DNA of 64,000 nt from an uncultured Candidatus Saccharibacteria bacterium (GCA_964650255.1 CAZYQT010000003.1:14619-78618), one strand, 5' to 3'. Positions 4,064 through 32,450 are shown, counted from the stretch's first letter. Numbers and translations: made by a program. The notes: a model not told the origin generated them from the letters alone.

Positions 4064-5095
4064 TTATTGCTTGAATAATTTTTTGGCCGCGTTGACCATG
4101 GAATCGTCGTCATGGTTTTTTTGCATCCAGTACCACCATTCTACACCCCAAAGATAGTTTTCGGAAAATCCAACTTTGGTGGCGTAATCAATGTTGTCTT
4201 GAAGGATTTTAGGATTCATGTGCAAGACTTGCTCATCGTGTGAGGTGTATGCAGGGTTGGAAATTTTTAGCCAAGGTTCAGCTTGCAGCTCAACCCCGAT
4301 AACTTTATTAGCCCCTGTAAGCAACCTTACTGCGCCAGCCTTTATATTATAAGTCCACCACGGTAAAGGATATGTCACATATTTGCCCTGTTTTTCGTAG
4401 TAAGCTTCTCGGTACATGGTTGCACCTAGGATGTTGGCTCCGCTTCGCGCTACGCCTATCCAGGCGCCTTTCTCGCCACTGTCAGTGGCAATCGTTGGCC
4501 TGCTATCTAGTTTTTTTACAGATTTCAGCTCCTTTTCGTACAATTCGCTTGGAGTTTGTGCACAGTCCGGTCCATATTGAAAATACGGCTCATTCTCTAT
4601 TTGCCAAGCTGCTATCGAAGTGTGGCTCTTGAAATGGGCAACTGCGATATCAACCATGTGAAGTTGGGCTTCATTTTGTTGTTCGGTCGTTAATCCATTG
4701 TACCATTCTGGTTGATGACATTCTGGCCAACGTGGCTGTTTTTTGCCTAGACCGAGAATGATCTGAATGTTTTGTTTGTCTGCTTGCCCTAGTAAAGCAT
4801 CGTAAGTTGTAAAGTCAAAATGCCCCTGCTGCGGTTCAAGCTCAGACCAATAAACTGGAAGGCGAATTTTTTGAGGACGCAAGTCAGTTAGAATTTTTTC
4901 AAACAGTTGTTGTGGATTAAAACCAAGTTCAGTAGCACGAATGGTAGAAAAGGTAATTCCCCAAGCAATGCCTTTTTGCGGTCGTCCTATAAAAAACAAA
5001 ACAACGCAAACAAAAATTATTGCTGCCAGTATGCCCGCAAAGATCTTGGCAACTTTTTTTAGTAAAGTTTTTTTGATCGGAAAGCTTTTGAACAT
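4064..5095 (-). CDS. glycoside hydrolase, clan GH-A TIM-barrel (GH5/GH42-like)
   Basis: N-terminal membrane anchor; motifs LPVYWSELEPQQGHFDF and AWQIENEP (catalytic acid in NEP context), later ELQAEPW. Confidence 0.55.
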   Translation of the reverse strand: MFKSFPIKKTLLKKVAKIFAGILAAIIFVCVVLFFIGRPQKGIAWGITFSTIRATELGFNPQQLFEKILTDLRPQKIRLPVYWSELEPQQGHFDFTTYDALLGQADKQNIQIILGLGKKQPRWPECHQPEWYNGLTTEQQNEAQLHMVDIAVAHFKSHTSIAAWQIENEPYFQYGPDCAQTPSELYEKELKSVKKLDSRPTIATDSGEKGAWIGVARSGANILGATMYREAYYEKQGKYVTYPLPWWTYNIKAGAVRLLTGANKVIGVELQAEPWLKISNPAYTSHDEQVLHMNPKILQDNIDYATKVGFSENYLWGVEWWYWMQKNHDDDSMVNAAKKLFKQ

Positions 5096-5096
5096 A

Positions 5097-5993
5097 CTAA
5101 GACATAGTTAAAAACACTAAGCCAGTACAAATTAAAATTATAGCAAGGATTTTTTGCGCTAAAATTGACCGGGTAATTTTTTCTTTGAGAATTTGCGGGT
5201 AGTATTTGGACAGGAAAATTGTTCCAACGAGTAGTAAAGCATATTGGGTCCCTTGCATGGCGTTAACAATGGTAACACTGCCCATTGATATAGCTGCGTT
5301 TTGGAGAAAACCACTTAGCATGCCAGTAACCCGCGCGCCTAAGTACAAAGCCTTGTTACCAGTTGAGGCCTGCTTTGGAGCATTAAACACAGCTGTGCGA
5401 ACAGAGCGTGGAATTAGGAAACAGAGAGATGTAAAAAAGAAACCAAATCTTGTCCAAATTAACCCTGACCACAAATTCGACTCTTGGGTGATGTATTTGA
5501 ACAAAACGAAGTGCAGGGCAAATAGCACGGCGGCAATAATTGCATTACCAAGTGCCTTTGCGTGCCAGCCAGTTTTATCTTCTCTAAGGGATACAATCAC
5601 TGCCCCTACAACTAGGAAGGCAAACGCTATCAGCTGAGTAGGCAGCAGACGCTCGCCTAAAATCACGTATGCAAATACTAAAGTAAATACTGGAACCAAA
5701 CCACCTTCAATGGGCAAGATGCGAGAAATGCTTGTGGCTTGCGTAGCTTTGTACATATAGTACAAAGCCAGTACAAAAGCTGCTCCGCTAACAAGGGCGA
5801 TTAGTATGTTTTGAGCTGATAGCAGCTGTAATCCAAATGGGGCCAGGATCAAAGTAAAAGGCGCGGTAATTCCAATATAGAAAGCGTATACTGCAGGGGA
5901 GCGCACTGCCTTGCTTAATAGGAACTTATCAATAACTCCATTAATTGCGTAAAGCGAGTAGGCAGCAATCGCAATGATGATGTAAAATGGCAT
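5097..5993 (-). CDS. EamA/DMT-family transporter
   Basis: Ten predicted TM segments in two 5-TM halves. Confidence 0.55.
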   Translation of the reverse strand: MPFYIIIAIAAYSLYAINGVIDKFLLSKAVRSPAVYAFYIGITAPFTLILAPFGLQLLSAQNILIALVSGAAFVLALYYMYKATQATSISRILPIEGGLVPVFTLVFAYVILGERLLPTQLIAFAFLVVGAVIVSLREDKTGWHAKALGNAIIAAVLFALHFVLFKYITQESNLWSGLIWTRFGFFFTSLCFLIPRSVRTAVFNAPKQASTGNKALYLGARVTGMLSGFLQNAAISMGSVTIVNAMQGTQYALLLVGTIFLSKYYPQILKEKITRSILAQKILAIILICTGLVFLTMS

Positions 5994-6000
5994 ACTTAGT

Positions 6001-7188
6001 TTAAGATCTTAATTGTTTGAAAACATCTGCGCTGGGTCGAACAGTTCGTTTTTGGGTTTCAAAGTTAACTTCAATTAGACCAAATTTTGGGCCAAACCCA
6101 TCGTGCCATTCGTGAGTGTCGGTGAGTGACCAATAGAAGTAACCGCGCACATCAGCCCCATCTTCTATAGCACGGTTTGTCCAGTAAAGATGTTCGCGAA
6201 TAAAATCTTGGCGCATGTCGTCGCGGGCATTGGCAATACCGTTCTCTGTAATGTACAAAGGCTTGTTGTATTTTTTTGATAGGTCCATCAGTAAATGATA
6301 AATTCCTTCTGGAAAAGTGCGCCAGCCCATATCGGATTTTGGACCATCAAGATTTTTTTGAACAATACCACCCCGCAAGGTCACAGTAAGTGAATGGTAA
6401 AAATAATAATTTAAACCAATAAAGTCTATCTCGTTTTTGATTTTGTTAAGAAACCAGTAATTGCCAAACCAATTATTTAGAGCCACTGCAGTTTTGTCTA
6501 AAAAGTTGTTGCGGAAAGGTTCGTTGTAAACATTATTTTTAGCAATGCTAATTTGTGCTTCAGGTATAACAGCCCTAATAGCATGGTAAGCACCTTTATG
6601 GGCAGCGGCCAAACCTCTGAACAGAAAAAAAGCACGACTAAGGCTTTTGGAAAATGGCGGCCAAAATCCTCGAATCGAACTCATGTAGGTAAAAACTTCT
6701 GGTTCGTTTATTGTGTTCCACAAATCAATTTCTGTTCCTAGCTGCTCAGCAATATATTGGGCGTATCGAATGAAAGCCGCGACGTTGTCTTTGTTGGTAA
6801 AGCCGCCACGTTCAGCTGCCCATTGCGGCAAAGTAAAATGATGCAAAGTTACCATCCTGGTTAAGCCTTGCTTCTTCATAGTTTGAAGAACTTTTCGGTA
6901 ATGCTCAATGGCGTCGGTATCCCACTTGTTTGGCTGTGGTTCAATCCGGGCCCATTCAATTGAGATCCGCATAGCCTCGAGGCCGATAGATTTGGCCAAG
7001 CTAAAATCTTCGTCGAATCTATTATAATGATCAGCTGCATCTCCGGACTTTGGCAGCTTACCAAGTCGTTCCTCGTGCCACCAGTCGCTATTGGTATTAT
7101 TGCCTTCAACCTGATGCGCGCTTGAAGCCGCCCCAAGTAGGAAATTAGTAGGTAATTTGAATGGTTTTTGTTTCTGGTCAATATTCAT
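6001..7188 (-). CDS. GH1 beta-glucosidase
   Basis: GH1 N-terminal signature FLLGAASSAHQVEGNN, acid/base TINEPEV, nucleophile ITENG. Start moved to internal Met (MNIDQKQK): the longer ORF to 7380 would run through the upstream terminator and into the neighbouring gene. Confidence 0.85.
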   Translation of the reverse strand: MNIDQKQKPFKLPTNFLLGAASSAHQVEGNNTNSDWWHEERLGKLPKSGDAADHYNRFDEDFSLAKSIGLEAMRISIEWARIEPQPNKWDTDAIEHYRKVLQTMKKQGLTRMVTLHHFTLPQWAAERGGFTNKDNVAAFIRYAQYIAEQLGTEIDLWNTINEPEVFTYMSSIRGFWPPFSKSLSRAFFLFRGLAAAHKGAYHAIRAVIPEAQISIAKNNVYNEPFRNNFLDKTAVALNNWFGNYWFLNKIKNEIDFIGLNYYFYHSLTVTLRGGIVQKNLDGPKSDMGWRTFPEGIYHLLMDLSKKYNKPLYITENGIANARDDMRQDFIREHLYWTNRAIEDGADVRGYFYWSLTDTHEWHDGFGPKFGLIEVNFETQKRTVRPSADVFKQLRS

Positions 7189-7220
7189 TTCTACCCTAAT
7201 TGTACTATATTTACTTGATA

Positions 7221-7246
7221 ACAAAAAACCGCCTTGGGCGGTTTTG
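7221..7246 (-). terminator. rho-independent terminator for pilin-like gene
   Basis: ccgcc/ggcgg stem with A-run on plus strand (T-run on minus). Confidence 0.55.
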
Positions 7247-7279
7247 TGGTCGCTCTGCTGGTAGGTATTTCTTCGGTAG

Positions 7280-7696
7280 TTATTTAGGATAATCGGCAGA
7301 ATTAAAAACATTAATCCCAGGTTTGAATTTCGATGTTGCTGGGAACTTATCACCCAGGCAGTATTCAAGTTTAAATTCACCGTTAGGTAATAAAGTGTAC
7401 TTGTATTGCAGTTGTTCCTTAGTGCAATATTTAGTCTTATTGTTCGGATAGACCGGCATTGCCGCCAAATAGGTTGGAATCAATTGCTCCAAATTATTTG
7501 GGTATACTTTATTCTCATCTTTGTACAATTCTAAAGCTGATGCGATAGCGCGTGCATTAGCAATTCTTTTACTATCCGGGCTGCGTTGTCCTTCTCCAAA
7601 GAATATGCCAACCACGAGAAAGAAAATTACAAAAATGCCTCCAACAACTGCAATTGTGGTAAGTAAAGTGATCACTATGAACCTTAGTGCTTTCAT
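7280..7696 (-). CDS. pilin/pseudopilin-like protein lacking canonical prepilin G-F-T-L-I-E motif
   Basis: N-terminal hydrophobic helix followed by RIANARAIASALELYKDENKVYPNNLEQL, which matches the conserved pseudopilin alpha1-C segment. Confidence 0.45.
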   Translation of the reverse strand: MKALRFIVITLLTTIAVVGGIFVIFFLVVGIFFGEGQRSPDSKRIANARAIASALELYKDENKVYPNNLEQLIPTYLAAMPVYPNNKTKYCTKEQLQYKYTLLPNGEFKLEYCLGDKFPATSKFKPGINVFNSADYPK

Positions 7697-9950: not shown

Positions 9951-11066
9951 CTAATTTTGAGCTGCCTCGGCTTCGTGGCCAGTTAGCTTCATAAATACAT
10001 CGTCTAAACTTGGGCGGCGCAGAATTACATCTTCCAAATTTAGTTTAGCTGTATCAATTTCTCTGATGATTTCCAAAAGCGTAGCCGTTCCACCAGAAAT
10101 AGGCATAGTTACAACACCACCTTCTGGTGCAATGTGAGCTGGTTCAGTTCCAAATTTGTTGATAAGTTCTGCAGCTTTTGGCGCAGTTGTGCGATCTTTC
10201 AAATGCAGTTCAATAATTTCGCCACCAACTTGTTGTTTTAATTCATCAGGAGTTCCTTGAGCAATAATTTTTCCATGGTCAATAACAAAAACTTGGCTAG
10301 CCAATTGATCAGCTTCTTCTAGATATTGAGTGGTTAGTAAAACAGTAGTGCCACCAGCCACTAAGTCTCTAATAATCTGCCACAAGGTAAAGCGAGATGA
10401 TGGGTCTAATCCTGTAGTTGGTTCATCGAGGAATAAAATCTTGGGACGAATAACTAAACTTGCGGCCAAATCCAAACGGCGGCGCATGCCACCAGAATAT
10501 GTTTTCGCAGTTCGGTCTGCGGCATCTTCTAATTCAAATTCTTTAAGAAGTTCTGCAGCACGTTGTTGGGCTGTTCGTTTAGGGAGATGATACAGCCGCC
10601 CAACCATTTCCAAATTTTCTCGGCCGGTTAAAGTTTCATCAACAGCCGCGTATTGTCCCGCAAGTCCTACTATAGAGCGGAGTTCTTGAGCGTTTTCAAC
10701 TACGTCTAAGCCAGCAATGGTTGCGGTACCGCTGGTTGGTGGTTGCAAGGTAGTAAGAATTCTAACTAAGGTGGTTTTCCCTGCACCGTTTGGACCAAGT
10801 AGGGCAGTAACCTGTCCAGGGACTACATCAAGGCTGAGGTTATTTAAAGCTTGTACTTTGCCGTAGGCCTTAGAAACGTTGCGTACTGAAATAATACTTG
10901 AGGTATTTTGCTTAAACTCCGGGACTTGAGTTTCCTGACTACTTGCTGCTGCAGGGATAGATGCTTCATTTCTAGCACTATTAATAGCCGCAAGCTTTTG
11001 CTCAACAACTAATTTTTCTACAAATATAAAGCGCTTAATAGCGCGGGATAGTCTTTTTAACCACAT
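9951..11066 (-). CDS. ABC transporter ATP-binding protein (DrrA-like)
   Basis: Walker A GPNGAGKTT, signature LSGGMRRRLDLA, Walker B ILFLDEPT. Confidence 0.85.
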   Translation of the reverse strand: MWLKRLSRAIKRFIFVEKLVVEQKLAAINSARNEASIPAAASSQETQVPEFKQNTSSIISVRNVSKAYGKVQALNNLSLDVVPGQVTALLGPNGAGKTTLVRILTTLQPPTSGTATIAGLDVVENAQELRSIVGLAGQYAAVDETLTGRENLEMVGRLYHLPKRTAQQRAAELLKEFELEDAADRTAKTYSGGMRRRLDLAASLVIRPKILFLDEPTTGLDPSSRFTLWQIIRDLVAGGTTVLLTTQYLEEADQLASQVFVIDHGKIIAQGTPDELKQQVGGEIIELHLKDRTTAPKAAELINKFGTEPAHIAPEGGVVTMPISGGTATLLEIIREIDTAKLNLEDVILRRPSLDDVFMKLTGHEAEAAQN

Positions 11067-11142
11067 AAATTTATATTTGATTATACGTCGAAATCACGTA
11101 CGCGTCAATACTTTATCATTCTCTCAATGAGAATGGTATTTA

Positions 11143-11727
11143 TTATTTTTTACACACGTAAACAAATGCTCTCGGGATATTTAAGACAGACTTCGTCTTA
11201 TAAACTGTGTCAAATTTTTGCTCTAATTTTTCTCTAAAGATTTTACCGCTCTTCAGTAGATTGAAAGGGGAGTAGGCGAATGTGAGAAACAATCCGCCAG
11301 GCTCCAAAGATTGATGGATTTTTTCTAGTATTGATTCTTGCATTGATTCTGTGAAGGCTGTCCATGGTAGTCCAGAGATGATCCGATCGCATCGGGCTTG
11401 GTTATGGTTTTGAAGCAAATATAAAATATTTTCTGCAGAGTCTTGGTAGGTAGTGATCTTTGGATATTTAGCTCTCATCAATTCAACAAAATCTGGATTA
11501 ATTTCTATGGTAAAAAAGTTATTTGCATTCGGAATATTATTTACAATGTGCTCGGTGAATACTCCAGTACCCGGGCCAATCTCCACAACAAATTTTGCTG
11601 CGGCTAAATCCGCGTGCTGGATTATCAGTTTGGCCAAATTCGTTGAGCTAGGTAAAACCGCGCCAGTGAATCTCGGGTGTTTAATCGTTTGTTTTAAAAA
11701 TGATGACATCTTTAATAAGGGTAACAA
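11143..11727 (-). CDS. class I SAM-dependent methyltransferase
   Basis: SAM-binding motif VVEIGPGTGVFT; 194 aa. Confidence 0.6.
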   Translation of the reverse strand: MLPLLKMSSFLKQTIKHPRFTGAVLPSSTNLAKLIIQHADLAAAKFVVEIGPGTGVFTEHIVNNIPNANNFFTIEINPDFVELMRAKYPKITTYQDSAENILYLLQNHNQARCDRIISGLPWTAFTESMQESILEKIHQSLEPGGLFLTFAYSPFNLLKSGKIFREKLEQKFDTVYKTKSVLNIPRAFVYVCKK

Positions 11728-11752
11728 AAAACCTTAGTTAGCAACAGCGGGT

Positions 11753-12472
11753 TTAAGGCTGGCTATTTATTTTAGATAGAAAAGCATCTGCCCAGTTTCT
11801 ATAGCCTACATCATTTGGATGAAATTGATCTTCCGCAAATGTAGATTTTATATCCGGATAGTTTTTCCAACCAAATTCATGAATGTCTATTATGCGCACT
11901 CTGTCATTTTCAAGCTCAGCCATTTGGTGGTTAATTTTTATGAGGCGCTGTTGAAGAAATTTGCGGTAAACATACGGGAGTAGTGGGGCCTTCTCAACTA
12001 TGGGTATATTCGTAATGTAAATACGTGCCCTAGTTTGTTCGGTTAAGGTATTAATGATAGTTTTTAAGTTTGATACTGTGTCATTGGGATTTCGAAGATG
12101 AGTCACATCGTTACCACCGATTGAAAGCGTTATAATATCTGGTTGAAATTTAATAATTTGAGAGAGCTGATTGTTAATAACGTCGCTTGTCTTGGCTCCG
12201 GTAACGCCAACATTTTTGTATTCTACAGTGTGGGATGAAGATAAATCCTGCGCAATAAGATAGGGGTAGGAATGTTCAACAGAGCTGGCACCAACACCAA
12301 CAGCAGTGCTATCACCAGCAGCAATATATTTAAGTTCGTCACCATTTCCAAATTTTTGATCATGTTGAACAATGGTATTCAAGTGGGAAGTATACAAAAT
12401 GTACTTAAATCGAACCACGGTACCAATCGTGTATATGAGCAATACAGCAATTACAAGATAAAGAATTTTCAT
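11753..12472 (-). CDS. SGNH/GDSL hydrolase
   Basis: Block I AAGDSTAVG (catalytic Ser), block III LSIGGNDV, C-terminal DxxHP (DQFHPN). Confidence 0.7.
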   Translation of the reverse strand: MKILYLVIAVLLIYTIGTVVRFKYILYTSHLNTIVQHDQKFGNGDELKYIAAGDSTAVGVGASSVEHSYPYLIAQDLSSSHTVEYKNVGVTGAKTSDVINNQLSQIIKFQPDIITLSIGGNDVTHLRNPNDTVSNLKTIINTLTEQTRARIYITNIPIVEKAPLLPYVYRKFLQQRLIKINHQMAELENDRVRIIDIHEFGWKNYPDIKSTFAEDQFHPNDVGYRNWADAFLSKINSQP

Positions 12473-12485
12473 CAGTTAAGCATAA

Positions 12486-12512
12486 CAAAAAACCGCCCTA
12501 AAGGCGATTTTT
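12486..12512 (-). terminator. terminator, member of near-identical family aacaaaaaaccgccCTAAAggcgattttt
   Basis: cgcc/ggcg stem plus flanking A/T runs; nearly identical copies at 14216 and 15004, related copy at 13055. Confidence 0.6.
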
Positions 12513-12516
12513 GAAT

Positions 12517-12552
12517 GGGGTGGTATAGTGGAGGACGTTCGCACCGCTGTTA
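12517..12552 (-). repeat. conserved 36-nt box A (tRNA-His 3'-end-like; putative att-like remnant)
   Basis: ggggtggtatagtggaggacgttcgcaccgctgtta; minus-strand reading ends ...ACCACCCCA like the tRNA-His acceptor end CACCCCA; its last three bases form the stop codon of the upstream gene. Confidence 0.45.
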
Positions 12553-13038
12553 TCTGAGAAAGGTTTCTAAGAGAGTAGAATGAGACAATAGGTTAGTTTT
12601 ATTGGAAATGTCTTGAGCAGTACTTGGGCGTGTGTCAAAACCTAGCCATTCTCCTTGAGAGCTATATCTTAGATCAACTACAATTGCATCATCAATAATC
12701 CAAAAATCTTGGTGGGGGATATTCAATTTCTCTATTTGATCTTCAGTAATGATTCGGATATCGTCTCCAAAAGGAACTGTCTTTCTAAAGATTTCTATTT
12801 CCATTTCTTTGTAAGGGGTCAGTGGTTTTCTGATTAAGCTTACCCTTTGCATATTAATCCCATTTTCTTTTTTGGTTGATATATACTGCCACCAAGTTTG
12901 CATGTACTCTTCCGCGATTCGTTGTTCTTTTTCCCAAGTTAAACGCAACTCTTTTTCAGCATTAAGCGAAAAAGACTGTAAATATTCATATCGAAATAAT
13001 GAATGCTCGGCTTGATCAAGTGTCTCAAGTAATGTCAT
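12550..13038 (-). CDS. hypothetical protein (162 aa)
   Basis: Soluble; C-terminal DFWIIDDAIVVDLRYSSQGEWLGFD motif; no family confidently recognised. Confidence 0.5.
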   Translation of the reverse strand: MTLLETLDQAEHSLFRYEYLQSFSLNAEKELRLTWEKEQRIAEEYMQTWWQYISTKKENGINMQRVSLIRKPLTPYKEMEIEIFRKTVPFGDDIRIITEDQIEKLNIPHQDFWIIDDAIVVDLRYSSQGEWLGFDTRPSTAQDISNKTNLLSHSTLLETFLR

Positions 13039-13054
13039 ACATAGAATATAACAA

Positions 13055-13080
13055 GAAATCGCCCTGTAGGCGATTTTTGA
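13055..13080 (-). terminator. terminator (variant of the same family, aacaagaaatcgccCTGTAggcgattttt)
   Basis: atcgcc/ggcgat stem, loop ctgta, T-run. Confidence 0.55.
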
Positions 13081-13095
13081 ATTGGACTGGGCAAA

Positions 13096-13557
13096 TTAAG
13101 TTTGTTTTTGGGGGATCGGCTGAACAGGATCGCGAAATGAATTCAAGGTCTGCACTAGCTTAAATGTTAAAAGCCAAAAAACATACCAACTAATGAATTG
13201 GTTGTCTACTGGTTCGTATGGGAAAATTCTTGCCAATGCTAATATGCTATATAAGAAAAATGCAAACCATATTGCTAAGAAGAAATAGAAAAATTCTCCC
13301 AAAAATTGTTTTTGCTTTTCTTTGTTACCTAAGTTGTGAGTAATTGCCAGGGTAATTATGTTTTTAAGTATAATTAGAAAACCACCAATGAACATCAGCC
13401 TGAAAACGCCCAAGGCGTTTGTAGGTATACCGAACAATTTTATTACCCAAGCAATTGGGATAATTGAAAAAGCAGTAAATGACTGAATTGCAAAAATCAA
13501 TGCCAATATACTATACAAAAATATTTTAATTTTATTTACAGTGTTAATTTTTATCAT
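13096..13557 (-). CDS. 4-TM membrane protein (153 aa)
   Basis: Hydrophobic helices throughout; no recognisable family. Confidence 0.5.
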   Translation of the reverse strand: MIKINTVNKIKIFLYSILALIFAIQSFTAFSIIPIAWVIKLFGIPTNALGVFRLMFIGGFLIILKNIITLAITHNLGNKEKQKQFLGEFFYFFLAIWFAFFLYSILALARIFPYEPVDNQFISWYVFWLLTFKLVQTLNSFRDPVQPIPQKQT

Positions 13558-13574
13558 ATTTTAATAATATCAAA

Positions 13575-13599
13575 AAACACCTCGTATTACGAGATGCTT
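13575..13599 (-). terminator. terminator hairpin
   Basis: cacctcg/cgaggtg-like stem followed by TTTTTT on minus strand. Confidence 0.45.
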
Positions 13600-13606
13600 T
13601 TAGTTT

Positions 13607-13640
13607 CGGGTGTATAGTGGAAGATGTGACCACTGCGTTA
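13607..13640 (-). repeat. conserved box B
   Basis: cgggtgtatagtggaagatgtgaccactgcgtta; about 80% identical to boxes A and C. Confidence 0.45.
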
Positions 13641-13647
13641 ATTATAA

Positions 13648-14202
13648 TCAACTATTTATCCATTGTGATTTGTTTAAAATGTGATTTGCCACTTCCATCG
13701 CAACTTCTTCTGGATTTTTAGTATCCGTATCGATTATTTTGCAACCCTCCAAAGCAAATTTATCACGGAGTATTGGGGCAAATGCTGCGCACTCCTCCGC
13801 AAATTCTTTCAATGGCTTACCTGCTGCCCGTTCAATTTCTTTTTCACTCTCTTTTGTAGGATAGCGTCCAAGTAGGCGTCGTCTAATAACATCACCACTG
13901 GCATTCAAAAGTATTAATTCCGTTTCAGGGTATGCCTCATTCCACACAGCCCGAATCCGTTCAGGCTCGTTAAAACCGCAAATAACAGTTGATTTATCCT
14001 CCTTTGCATTAACTTTTCCTACCTCAAGCCAATTAGCAGTTTCTTGTTTATGCCATATCGGCCCACCTCCATCTGGTACGCCACGCTCATCGAAATCACG
14101 TATATCAAAATTACTCTCTGGTAGAAATTTTTTTAAGTGTTCCATCGTGGAGGTTTTACCAACTCCAGATACTCCGCTGACAAAGTAAATTTTTTTATTC
14201 AT
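13648..14202 (-). CDS. P-loop NTPase / small-molecule kinase-like (AAA_33-like)
   Basis: Walker A at N-terminus YFVSGVSGVGKTS; 184 aa. Confidence 0.6.
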   Translation of the reverse strand: MNKKIYFVSGVSGVGKTSTMEHLKKFLPESNFDIRDFDERGVPDGGGPIWHKQETANWLEVGKVNAKEDKSTVICGFNEPERIRAVWNEAYPETELILLNASGDVIRRRLLGRYPTKESEKEIERAAGKPLKEFAEECAAFAPILRDKFALEGCKIIDTDTKNPEEVAMEVANHILNKSQWINS

Positions 14203-14215
14203 ACTTTATAATTCT

Positions 14216-14244
14216 AACAAAAAACCGCCCTAAAGGCGATTTTA
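14216..14244 (-). terminator. terminator (family copy aacaaaaaaccgccCTAAAggcgatttta)
   Basis: Identical core to 12486-12512. Confidence 0.6.
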
Positions 14245-14258
14245 GTTATGAGATTCAT

Positions 14259-14294
14259 GGGGTCGCATAGTGGAAGATGTGGCAACTGCGGTTA
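14259..14294 (-). repeat. conserved box C
   Basis: ggggtcgcatagtggaagatgtggcaactgcggtta; ends in the stop codon of gene 14292..14651; minus-strand reading ends GCGACCCCA. Confidence 0.45.
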
Positions 14295-14651
14295 GAAACT
14301 TTCCCATGGCCATACCCAACTTGAATTCATTTGAGTAATTGGGTGTCCAGTCTTAATATAGAATGGCTCGAAGAACTTTATGTTACGTACGCAATAATCA
14401 CTTTCGCCGCTAGACCGATGTACTAATCCTTCCTTATAATCTTTTGCGTGGGGTCCTAGTACAATTACTTTATCCAAGTATTTTTGAGAATCTGTTTGAG
14501 GGCTACAAGAATAAGAAGTGAGAAGAGGGATAGCCAATATAATTATCACCAGAAAATATATAAGTCTACTCTTACCTTTGAATGCCAAGCTTAAGATTAT
14601 AAAACTTGCAGGTATTAGAGTGAGTATAATATATAAACCGCCATCAAACAT
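14292..14651 (-). CDS. small membrane-anchored protein (119 aa)
   Basis: N-terminal two TM helices; start overlaps the upstream gene stop by 8 nt. Confidence 0.5.
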   Translation of the reverse strand: MFDGGLYIILTLIPASFIILSLAFKGKSRLIYFLVIIILAIPLLTSYSCSPQTDSQKYLDKVIVLGPHAKDYKEGLVHRSSGESDYCVRNIKFFEPFYIKTGHPITQMNSSWVWPWESF

Positions 14652-14991
14652 TCGAATTTAAATTTACTGTTGATGAAACATGTCGTTTGTGAATTTTTTT
14701 GGTAAACCATAGGATGACGAATGCTATCACTATCCAAATGGCAATGTTGATAAACCAATTCAATATCAAAGTAGATGACTCAAATCCTAAAGAGCTATTT
14801 ACGCTTTGTCGGAAAGGAAATCCAAAGTGTAAAATAGTTTCCACAGACTTACCACTTTTATTTAGGGGTTCGGGTACAATATTATATTCAGGAGATACAG
14901 ATAAATAATAAATAGACCAGCCAAGGGCTATCCCTAAGAGTATACTCCAGCCTGCAAGATGTTTTTTTGTTTCCAAAGTAAATATTTTCAT
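14644..14991 (-). CDS. small membrane protein (115 aa)
   Basis: Start set to internal Met MKIFTLETKK, because the listed ORF start at 15093 would read through the terminator and tRNA-His. Confidence 0.5.
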   Translation of the reverse strand: MKIFTLETKKHLAGWSILLGIALGWSIYYLSVSPEYNIVPEPLNKSGKSVETILHFGFPFRQSVNSSLGFESSTLILNWFINIAIWIVIAFVILWFTKKIHKRHVSSTVNLNSNV

Positions 14992-15003
14992 ACATAAATA
15001 ATA

Positions 15004-15031
15004 ACAAAAAACCGCCGTAAAGGCGATTTTT
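15004..15031 (-). terminator. terminator directly after tRNA-His (family copy aacaaaaaaccgccGTAAAggcgattttt)
   Basis: cgcc/ggcg stem, T-run on minus strand. Confidence 0.6.
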
Positions 15032-15033
15032 GC

Positions 15034-15108
15034 TGGGGTGATCGAGGAGAATCGAACTCCCGACCTCGCTGCCACAGAGCGATGTTTTACCATTAAACTA
15101 CGACCACC
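15034..15108 (-). tRNA. tRNA-His (anticodon GTG) with encoded G-1 and CCA
   Basis: Hand-folded cloverleaf: G-1, acceptor GTGGTCG/CGATCAC, D-stem GTTT/AAAC, anticodon stem TCGCT/AGCGA with loop CTGTGGC, T-arm GGGAG-TTCGATT-CTCCT, discriminator C73, then CCA. Confidence 0.8.
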
Positions 15109-15132
15109 ATATTTTAGTTACGAGTTTAGAAT

Positions 15133-31475: not shown

Positions 31476-32450
31476 CTATTTTTTGTTATGAAACTTCTTG
31501 TGGACTTCGCGCAGTTGCGAGTTGGTTACGTGAGTGTAGATTTGGGTAGTAGTAATAGAGGCGTGGCCAAGCAGGGTTTGTACGCTACGAATGTCAGCGC
31601 CGTTTTGAAGTAAGTCTGTAGCAAAAGAGTGTCGGAATGTGTGCGGCGTAACTTTATGCATAATTCCAGCAAGGGCCGCGTATTTTTTTACTAGGCGCTG
31701 CACACTGCGTGCTGTTAACCCCGCTGCGTGATGTTGATCACTTTTTTTGCCCATTGAGTCCATTTGCTTTGTAACTGAGTTGCCAATTTGGCTGTGACTT
31801 ACAAATAGGGCTGGATTGTTGTCCGTGCGCTTCTTAAGATAGGCGCGCAGCATTTTTACTGCTTCATCAGACATAAACACTAGGCGGAGTTTATCACCTT
31901 TGCCGCGTACAGTGAATTCGCCACGTTCAAAGTTTAATTGTTTTTGTTGGAGCTGTACTAGCTCAGAAATACGCACTCCGCTGGAAAAGAGCAGTTCTAG
32001 TATGGCTGCGTCTCGTAGTCGAGCGATTTCATTATCTTCCGAAGCAACTGCCTTTTTGATGCGCTCAATCTCTTCATTTGTCATAATTTCTACTTCACGC
32101 GCGGGATTCTTGGCTAATTCAATTTTTTCCGCAGATAGGGTATCTACATCGCGCTTAGCCAAATACTTCAAAAAAGCACGCAAAGCAATAACATGGTAGT
32201 TTTGGGTAACTAACTTTAAATTTTTGCCGCGTTCATCAGCAAGGCGATTAAGGAATAGGCGATAGGATCGCACAGTATCTAAAGTAATATCCTCGGGGCG
32301 ATTTAGGCTGTGAGCTTTAGCAAAAGCCGCAAAGCGGGCGAGATAGTGCTCATAGTTGCGAATAGTTAGTAAACTCTTGTTTTTCTCGATTTCGCAGTAT
32401 TCGAGGAACTCTCGTACATACTTTTCAATTTTCGTTTTGGTTTCAGACAT
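31476..32450 (-). CDS. tyrosine site-specific recombinase (XerC/XerD family)
   Basis: N-terminal SAM-like core-binding domain; C-terminal catalytic HTFRHSFATDLLQNGADIRSVQTLLGHASITTTQIYTHV (R-H-R-Y signature). Confidence 0.85.
   Translation of the reverse strand: MSETKTKIEKYVREFLEYCEIEKNKSLLTIRNYEHYLARFAAFAKAHSLNRPEDITLDTVRSYRLFLNRLADERGKNLKLVTQNYHVIALRAFLKYLAKRDVDTLSAEKIELAKNPAREVEIMTNEEIERIKKAVASEDNEIARLRDAAILELLFSSGVRISELVQLQQKQLNFERGEFTVRGKGDKLRLVFMSDEAVKMLRAYLKKRTDNNPALFVSHSQIGNSVTKQMDSMGKKSDQHHAAGLTARSVQRLVKKYAALAGIMHKVTPHTFRHSFATDLLQNGADIRSVQTLLGHASITTTQIYTHVTNSQLREVHKKFHNKK

Follow-up and report, generated by a model that had tools for sequence, protein, structure and literature searches.

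Integration at tRNA genes is usually the work of tyrosine integrases, and in streptococci the element ICESt3 reportedly takes part, through such integrases, in accretion with recombinase-less elements flanked by attachment (att) sites. In the candidate phyla radiation (CPR, or Patescibacteria), whose genomes are tiny, the gain and shuffling of accessory genes are poorly understood. The tandem arrays of the staphylococcal cassette chromosome (SCC) are the closest analogue of the CPR locus described here; many of their modules have no recombinase and depend for excision and circularisation on that of an adjacent element (PMC11470126). The subject of this report is an array of small genes beside the tRNA-His gene of an uncultured Candidatus Saccharibacteria bacterium, in a stretch of 64,000 nucleotides (GCA_964650255.1, CAZYQT010000003.1:14619-78618) that we call the window throughout. 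The array consists of tRNA-His and four junctions, with one or two intact small genes between them, and there is no large serine recombinase (LSR) gene anywhere in the 64 kb. A preliminary description, made from the sequence of the window alone, had seen in it the footprint of repeated site-specific integration into the 3' end of tRNA-His, by modules that lack an integrase of their own. Both points are borne out, the first by the junctions of LSR elements at the same tRNA and by recurrent arrays with other cargo, the second by the want of an LSR in the window. It is probable that the array is made up of the footprints that LSR elements left at their attachment sites when they integrated, one after another, at the CCA end of tRNA-His, the stacked elements having been reduced to cargo plus an att unit.

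Junctions of serine recombinase elements at tRNA-His

The tRNA-His gene, the three conserved boxes, the four related hairpins and the gene content of the array are all where the preliminary description had put them, except that the end of the tRNA differs by one base; all copies of box and hairpin fall within 12.48-15.04 kb, and there are none elsewhere in the window. Against a consensus of ~36 nt, box A has three mismatches and box C none, whereas shuffled sequence is expected to give 0.00 matches; box B is 63% identical to A, has a 1-nt deletion and ends in CACCCGAAA in place of CCCCA. The terminal TTA of the box is also the stop codon of a 162-aa open reading frame (ORF) in A (ORF end at 12550) and of a 119-aa ORF in C (14292), which is not the case in B. 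Near-exact or exact copies of the hairpin lie at 12489-12511, 14221-14243 and 15008-15030 (0.01 expected) and a diverged copy at 13056-13076; on folding, every copy gives a stable hairpin followed by a T-run.

A degenerate box pattern, scanned against one genome per species (185,579 species), gave 10 loci. Six are true and all of these are from CPR bacteria (four Saccharibacteria and two Doudnabacteria metagenome-assembled genomes, MAGs); in each of the six the similarity continues past the pattern, via ...GCGACCCCA, into a hairpin with a T-run. The other four, from outside the CPR, are chance matches inside unrelated genes. A profile built from the copies added one locus with four boxes in a single array (L013) and another with tRNA-His, modules and two boxes (L010), and a metagenome scan contributed three more true loci (L018, L020 and L021). 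The boxes are ~80-95% identical across Saccharibacteria and Doudnabacteria, and nothing else is common to these loci.

The arrays in L010, L013, L018 and L026 are, like that of the window, made of modules without a recombinase, and tRNA-His adjoins those in L010, L018 and L026; indeed, wherever the flank suffices the partner is tRNA-His. L018 has the order Fur, tRNA-His, 138-aa gene, box, Peptidase_S51 gene and degenerate box, with a different family of hairpin stem. L026 has the same sigma factor-DUF5667-tRNA-His synteny as the window, with one module that carries a 3-methyladenine glycosylase (Tag) gene and ends in a degenerate box and then a different hairpin; judged by its sequence, it is a textbook attL...attR pair with other cargo. 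Comparisons of cargo between the arrays gave no BLASTP matches between loci and no PADLOC defence matches. Because the cargo is unrelated, and because of L026 and two loci described below (L016 and L008), we take the content to differ from lineage to lineage, the tRNA and the boxes marking the breakpoints.

It is L020 that connects the box with a recombinase. The order in this locus is tRNA-His, LSR, Toprim primase, a type III restriction-modification (R-M) pair and then, 11.6 kb from the tRNA, a box and terminator, the box being oriented as in the window. The LSR (10132-11835) is 568 aa long and combines the domains Resolvase, Recombinase and Zn_ribbon_recom; its ORF converges on the tRNA and reads into the tRNA antisense strand (...RARW GRHWESNP...), TGG GGT being the complement of ACCCCA. 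Since the LSR reads into antisense tRNA and the frame of the box matches, attP was predicted to lie inside the 3' end of the LSR gene, with the box left at the far junction. Three further "WG" LSRs (in L022, L023 and L024) each overlap the 3' end of tRNA-His which, with L020, makes four of the four checked. The 10-kb element of L024 resembles that of L020 and its distal site, WGRIVRDVRMIIQQQDEYIYIPDFR*, is a complete native tail; at the distal site of L020, too, the tail is of the longer kind. In L033 the LSR ORF (P0006) is intact and not integrated; A-run, hairpin, TGG and box-like sequence are there contiguous and in frame, and the hairpin, ACAGAGGC...GCCTCTGT, encodes TEALASV.

Some other features of these elements deserve mention. 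The peptide K-T-E-A-L-A-S-V in the LSR corresponds to a perfect hairpin preceded by an A-run (L020:11735-11782, L024:11265-11306, L033:3095-3140), and after integration this hairpin and T-run, directly after the CCA on the strand of the tRNA, would serve as the tRNA terminator. The L024 element encodes a 73-aa HTH_17/MerR-type protein (L024:6391-6612), a domain type common among excisionases, which is a candidate directionality factor, and a SocA_Panacea-domain protein near its distal end, perhaps a toxin-antitoxin cargo. A phage origin of the LSR elements was considered and rejected: IMG/VR gave no box match and, with the single LSR query P0010, no LSR relative, the one match covering only residues encoded by antisense tRNA. 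Finally, in L025 (L025:13844-19799) the sigma-DUF5667 neighbourhood includes two tRNA-His genes that flank a Shedu-type (SduA_C) gene; the first tRNA-His copy is disrupted from the T-loop onward and a different LSR, 24% identical to that of L020, lies 2.7 kb downstream. From its gene arrangement this looks like a second, unrelated integrase system on the same tRNA.

More than 4600 database proteins are homologous to the LSR, and the best 120 of them (P0001-P0120) are 75-83% identical to that of L020. All of the best 120 have ...KAKTEALASVRA(R/H)W and then diverge: ~64 of the tails are tRNA-antisense (W..W[DE]SNP), 44 end within three residues and ~12 are of other kinds. Native tails resembling the box occur in P0116 (WLRIVNDVRTIFQRQKEYIYIPDL...), P0057 (WLRTVNNVRNKIQQYNGTIYIPDL...) and P0006 (WGHMVESIRTIIQQQTGYIYIPDL...), the last of which a crude tail pattern had put among the tRNA-antisense tails. 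Read from these junctions and tails, a very abundant and highly conserved family of LSRs, spread over many CPR lineages, has the encoded CCA end of tRNA genes as its site of integration. The invariant W is followed by L in 80 of the 120, by G in 25, by R in 8 and by Q in 7, which suggests subfamilies aimed at tRNAs with different discriminator bases.

On the plus strand the boxes encode WG(G/R)IVEDV(R/A)TAV, matching the C-terminal tail of this family. The frame is TGG GGT CGC ATA GTG GAA GAT GTG GCA ACT GCG GTT, giving WGRIVEDVATAV, and variation in it has a 3-nt period: in 17 boxes, 28 departures from consensus fall on first, 19 on second and 45 on third codon positions, and Arg is retained via CGC, CGG and AGA. 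As we read it, this bias is the signature of past protein-level selection on the plus strand, opposite the cargo genes. Boxes A and C carry different LSR alleles (the Arg-CGC and Ala-GCA types, both also present in other phyla) and therefore appear to be separate acquisitions, not a local duplication. When native LSR tails (from database proteins not found via the box) were compared with the six frames of the window, the best matches were site A and box C: QKEALASVRSQWLRIVNDVRT against QKTALKAI-FEWGGIVEDVRT at site A including the hairpin (12486-12545), and WGHMVESIRTIIQQQTGYIYIPDLN against WGRIVEDVATAVRNFP--MAIPNLN at box C (14258-14326). One open frame, QKTA(L/V)KAI..WG.IV.DV.TA., still runs through hairpin, TGG and box at site A and at three further sites (in L016 and L013); that of site A reads QKTALKAIFEWGGIVEDVRTAVI* on the plus strand and aligns to the LSR C-terminus QKEALASVRSQWLRIVNDVRT. 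Taken with the loci above, these matches make the box a P arm, homologous to the last codons of the LSR gene. The preliminary description had seen in it an imitation of the end of tRNA-His; what the two have in common is no more than ACCCCA (5-7 nt), and the remainder is the P arm from the LSR gene. Two other candidates were tried and discarded. As a small plus-strand protein gene, the box would belong to ORFs of 23-57 codons that have no start upstream of it, with conservation confined to the box; and as a piece of a chromosomal target gene it has no counterpart, there being no full-length gene with IVEDV.TAV in any CPR locus.

The att sites have the features of serine integration. The junction pairs of L020 and L024 have only ~5-8 nt in common around ACCCC(A) and their flanking arms are unrelated, as expected for serine integrases. 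From structural work on LSRs, attP and attB differ in the place of the outer motif, which in attP stands 5 bp further out from the centre. Here, of seven box or attP sequences, six have a T-loop-like pentamer that starts 27 nt before the CCA (for the remaining one, from L024, the strict pattern has no match, but by eye CATTC stands at the same offset), and the T-loop motif starts 22 nt before the CCA in six of six tRNA-His genes; in the window tRNA-His this motif is AGTTC. MAFFT independently aligns the box to the tRNA with one 5-nt gap. The offset of 5 nt matches the half-site rule, and in such an alignment the box is the P arm, the T-arm and acceptor region of tRNA-His the B arm, and the crossover in or next to the CCA; by the same comparison, the window tRNA-His is the chromosomal (B) arm of the attachment site. 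The hairpin has its counterpart, in position and open frame, in the one that lies within the LSR codons K-T-(E)-A-L, immediately 5' of the crossover. Because the hairpin-TGG-box frame is still open at four sites, the window hairpin was taken for the P' arm of the element, box and hairpin together then making a ~70-nt attP-type unit, an assignment that is not secure.

The array was probably built as follows. The LSR has its attP inside the 3' end of its own gene; the ORF of an integrated element runs into antisense tRNA, and its last ~12-26 codons are left at the far end of the element, beside a terminator, as the box (P arm). The tRNA-His gene and its hairpin would be the tRNA-side junction, and box, CCA and hairpin a ~70-nt attP remnant. 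At least three to four separate integrations would have been stacked by the tRNA, the newest nearest to it, and each module subsequently cut down to its cargo and the ~70-nt att unit. Such stacking would need the tRNA-side hybrid site (tRNA-His + P') to be still usable as a target, as at rlmH for SCC. The exchange of the LSR tail for a tRNA-antisense one could, in addition, act as a built-in switch of the directionality or activity of the enzyme.

Layout and punctuation of the window array

The coordinates of the array are collected in Table 1. On the minus strand, tRNA-His and its hairpin are followed by four modules, each closed by a box, intact or vestigial, and a hairpin, and then by the GDSL lipase.

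Table 1. Features of the tRNA-His array, in minus-strand order (window coordinates)
Feature	Position	Strand	Remarks
tRNA-His (GTG), intact	15034-15107 (ARAGORN); 15037-15107 (Rfam)	minus	G-1 and CCA encoded
Right arm directly 3' of tRNA CCA: hairpin and T-run, tRNA terminator	15004-15033		sequence family shared with the box A and box C hairpins
Module 1 cargo: two overlapping small ORFs	14292-14991	minus	115 aa (ATG 14991); 119 aa (14292-14651)
Box C (P arm by homology)	14257/14259-14294	plus	reads WGRIVEDVATAV
Hairpin after box C, with spacer insertion	14216-14243 (hairpin); 14244-14256 (insertion)		insertion of 11-13 nt
Module 2 cargo: 184-aa P-loop NTPase or kinase-like protein	13648-14202	minus	P-loop matches weak
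Box B (decayed P arm by homology)	13604-13641	plus	1-nt deletion; CCA core mutated; gene strand CACCCGAAA
Hairpin terminator after box B	13573-13601		stem sequence unlike A, C and tRNA family
Module 3 cargo: 153-aa protein	13096-13557	minus	membrane-like by hydrophobic stretches
Fourth junction	13056-13092		A/C-family hairpin (13056-13076); vestige of core and box start
Module 4 cargo: 162-aa DUF6879 protein	12550-13038	minus	E 3e-29
Site A, best-preserved complete att unit	12486-12557	plus	box A 12515/12517-12552; hairpin 12488-12512
GDSL lipase, first gene past array	11753-12472	minus	starts 12 nt after hairpin T-run, like module genes

The minus-strand end of tRNA-His reads ...CGATCAC-C-CCA. 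Both ORFs of module 1 have the look of membrane proteins, judging from their hydrophobic stretches, and the final codons of the 119-aa ORF are antisense to the remnant of the LSR tail; weak tail homology at box C extends as far as 14326 (..RNFPMAIPNLN against ..YIYIPDLN). The spacer insertion at site C, which is absent from site A, shifts the hairpin away from the CCA core. At the fourth junction the vestige is GAATTGGACTGGGCA, as compared with GAATGGGGTGGTATA at site A, and the remainder of the box has gone; read as a decayed att unit, this junction raises the module count from three to four.

Every T-run is followed by TGnTAnnnT, an extended -10-like motif, with the next ATG 7-12 nt further on (window 12472-12490, 13557-13575, 14202-14220 and 14991-15008); at the arm beside the tRNA (15004-15033) the motif leads to the ATG at 14991. 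The succession of T-run and motif suggests that each module has its own terminator and promoter. No Shine-Dalgarno sequence is visible at these sites, and the module mRNAs may be leaderless or nearly so. A generic -35/-10 scan missed the TGnTAnnnT motifs.

Beyond the array, an operon of GH1, EamA and a 340-aa protein (window 4064-7380) is syntenic with L016:2029-5191 and L008:2629-5890, both from Saccharibacteria MAGs. In L016 and L008 a box and hairpin stand immediately upstream of GH1; the GH1 gene of the window is separated from tRNA-His by 7.6 kb with genes for a lipase, a methyltransferase, an ABC transporter, a cupin and other proteins. Accretion may therefore have reached well past box A, with later erosion of the older sites. 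The GH1 protein of the window and its counterpart in a Saccharibacteria MAG are 68% identical, and the window also carries DUF5667; for these two reasons we place it with the box-carrying CPR group.

Stacked remnants or mobile cassettes

A stack of integrated LSR elements, since reduced, has several observations to contend with. The array hairpins start 12-14 nt from the CCA and stand ~5-6 nt nearer to it than the hairpins in L020, L024 and L033, whose P' arms have 18 nt there; in host-type arms (n=2) the hairpin starts 15-17 nt from the CCA, and spacing thus did not assign the array hairpins to either element or host. Site A resembles attP (P + P') and not the expected attR (P + host arm), and the cargo ORFs abut box and hairpin more neatly than random decay of 10-kb elements predicts. 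The single tail alignments are short (E ~0.1-0.2), their weight coming from agreement across queries. The 64-kb window holds no LSR gene or fragment beyond the ~24 terminal codons at each site, and looking for an LSR that carries exactly the Saccharibacteria-type tail WGRIVEDV yielded eight short fragments, none with the tail, although the word-index search was perhaps too insensitive. To our knowledge, canonical serine integrases do not target attL, and stacking needs a relaxed choice of site or some other route. At rlmH, Ccr recombinases evidently cope with sites that are stacked (PMC11470126).

Some of these features would suit a live, integron-like platform, in which mini-cassettes are circularised and re-inserted at tRNA-His by an LSR encoded elsewhere, in another element or another part of the genome, and selection, not decay, accounts for the compact layout. 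At many independent sites each of the two arms has been cut to ~33-36 nt, and the cargo ORFs start 10-20 nt past the hairpin and stop at or on the edge of the box. The lack of relationship between the cargoes of different arrays, the strong conservation of the box across Saccharibacteria and Doudnabacteria and the frame still open through hairpin, TGG and box at four sites point the same way, and Ccr serine recombinases do mobilise recombinase-less tandem cassettes in trans (PMC11470126). However, two of the four window sites are damaged (the core of box B and the box at 13056), site C has an insertion, and the window has no LSR. Nor does the population give any sign of movement. Exact-protein look-ups of the flanking and cargo genes found 13 contigs from the same population in several samples; each covers part of the array and is identical to the window over the matching parts, in one unbroken stretch. 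No presence or absence of cassettes between strains is visible in these 13 partial contigs, and neither a circular form nor an empty site was seen among them. The polymorphism that the preliminary description had envisaged is thus found only among distant relatives (L026), where content differs with breakpoints at the tRNA and the boxes, and not within the population. Contig ends at 14215 and 13107 fit breaks at short repeats and not variants; a MEGAHIT contig from ERZ27258500, in which 98 nt of foreign, high-GC sequence (L031:1-98) are joined at window 13128, was judged to be an assembly chimera.

The array in the window strain is probably largely fixed now, and a live platform seems to us possible but doubtful. 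It is rather unlikely, too, that the CPR have an integron-like system of capture by an LSR in trans, in which the ~70-nt hairpin-CCA-box unit turns modules of one or two genes into cassettes that are inserted and excised at the CCA end of tRNA-His. In such a system, sister subfamilies would use other tRNAs and the att unit would also supply a terminator and a promoter.

A tyrosine recombinase has far less to recommend it. The preliminary description had pointed to the XerC/D-like gene at 31476-32450, for which box plus terminator would be an attC- or dif-like site, and the window does encode this Phage_integrase-family protein (E 8e-43), of the type usual at tRNA genes. Yet the gene is 16 kb away and no att-like repeat linking it to the array was seen, whereas the recombinase at the junction is an LSR in all four loci that have one, overlapping tRNA-His in L020 and L022-L024. 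Moreover, the junctions share ~5-8 nt and no long block of identity over the tRNA 3' half, the box is homologous to the end of an LSR gene, and it contains no dif- or attC-like dyad. We consider a role for this protein very improbable.

The position of the box, between stop codon and terminator on the transcribed strand, and its CCCCA end, like that of tRNA-His, could also be those of a functional RNA element of the 3' untranslated region (a tRNA-His-like CCA mimic or a regulator site) unrelated to DNA recombination. In the window, however, ARAGORN and Rfam find only four real tRNAs, tRNA-His among them, and the boxes match no tRNA or Rfam model, as the preliminary description had anticipated for tRNA scans. 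The box has no T-stem, conserved fold, covarying helix or inverted repeat, the sole palindrome being the terminator hairpin; in alignments by eye and in folds, no pairing is kept between copies, either within the box or with upstream sequence. What looked like a 9-bp "acceptor stem" in L016 is merely the ...EYIATPN... part of the LSR tail. Variation tracks the codon positions of the opposite strand, and an intact LSR ORF contains the same sequence, as do the distal junctions of LSR elements of 10-12 kb, so that an RNA function independent of recombination is hardly credible. Equally hard to credit is a dispersed repeat (of the repetitive extragenic palindrome or miniature inverted-repeat transposable element kind) or a local tandem duplication of the tRNA-His terminator region: the hairpins are near-identical within one genome (the window and, with another stem family, L018), but the 64 kb have no further copies, the boxes lie outside the cargo coding sequence, A and C are different LSR alleles that co-occur with the same types in other phyla, and the partner is tRNA-His wherever the flank suffices.

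Relation to known systems

As an array of remnants of LSR elements, the locus points to one very abundant and highly conserved LSR family as a major vehicle for genes in the CPR, with tRNA CCA ends as landing pads and stacks of small accessory genes left behind. This would explain both a conserved "orphan" motif that recurs in CPR genomes and the odd C-termini of many LSR entries, which read into antisense tRNA. It also yields actual attP and attB sequences for a new LSR family whose target is short and universal, and LSRs with such targets are sought as tools for genome engineering. If the mini-modules are mobile, they would constitute the first integron-like cassette system based on a serine recombinase outside the staphylococcal SCC, and in an uncultured radiation. 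A literature search on CPR serine recombinases at tRNA genes, with incomplete coverage, found nothing relevant; to that extent, we have not found described a CPR-wide LSR family that uses tRNA CCA ends, an attP within the ORF of the LSR itself such that integration swaps the tail of the enzyme, or arrays of 0.5-1-kb modules that bear only an att unit. The known kinds to which the locus belongs are the genomic islands of tRNA genes and the tandem SCC cassettes.

Integrons (IntI, attI, attC) likewise consist of small, mostly single-gene units at one point, each ending in a recombination site, with diverse cargo and with sites that are homogeneous within a genome. In contrast to them, the array has no IntI, no tyrosine recombinase within 16 kb and no folded bottom strand of the attC type; attC sites are conserved in structure, whereas the sites here are conserved in sequence. 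Integrons also rely on the common Pc promoter, whereas the units here appear to carry their own terminator and -10-like promoter.

The integrases of SSV1-type archaeal viruses resemble the CPR enzymes in having attP inside the integrase ORF, so that the gene is split by integration at a tRNA and a fragment is left at the far junction. They are, however, tyrosine integrases from which a large part is split off; here the enzyme is of the serine family, ~540 residues are kept and the last 12-30 are replaced by a tRNA-antisense tail. With the phage LSRs phiC31, Bxb1 and A118/LI (work of Rutherford, Van Duyne and colleagues) the family has in common the Resolvase, Recombinase and zinc-ribbon architecture, the few shared crossover bases and an outer motif 5 bp further out in attP than in attB. 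What differs is the setting: ~10-kb, non-viral-looking elements with a primase and R-M genes, tRNA CCA targets and a stacking that would need non-canonical use of sites.

The genomic islands of tRNA genes resemble the array in that integration at the 3' end leaves an intact tRNA, in their tandem accretion and in recombinase-less, att-flanked elements. Their recombinases are tyrosine recombinases, and a long block of identity duplicates the tRNA 3' half, as against ~5-7 nt and the serine family here.

The preliminary description had recognised no described system in this arrangement; tandem SCC-like cassettes, mobilised by Ccr serine recombinases (PMC11470126), do provide an analogue. The likeness is one of layout, mobility of the CPR modules being no more than a possibility. 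SCC cassettes measure from several to tens of kb and the modules here 0.5-1 kb, with one or two genes; integration here is into the CCA end of a tRNA and not into a protein-coding gene, the att site is part of the recombinase ORF and the host is a CPR bacterium. In both the SCC and SCCmec arrays at rlmH (orfX) of staphylococci, served by CcrAB or CcrC, and the tRNA-His array of the window, att-bounded modules of the serine-recombinase type are stacked at the 3' end of a single conserved housekeeping gene.

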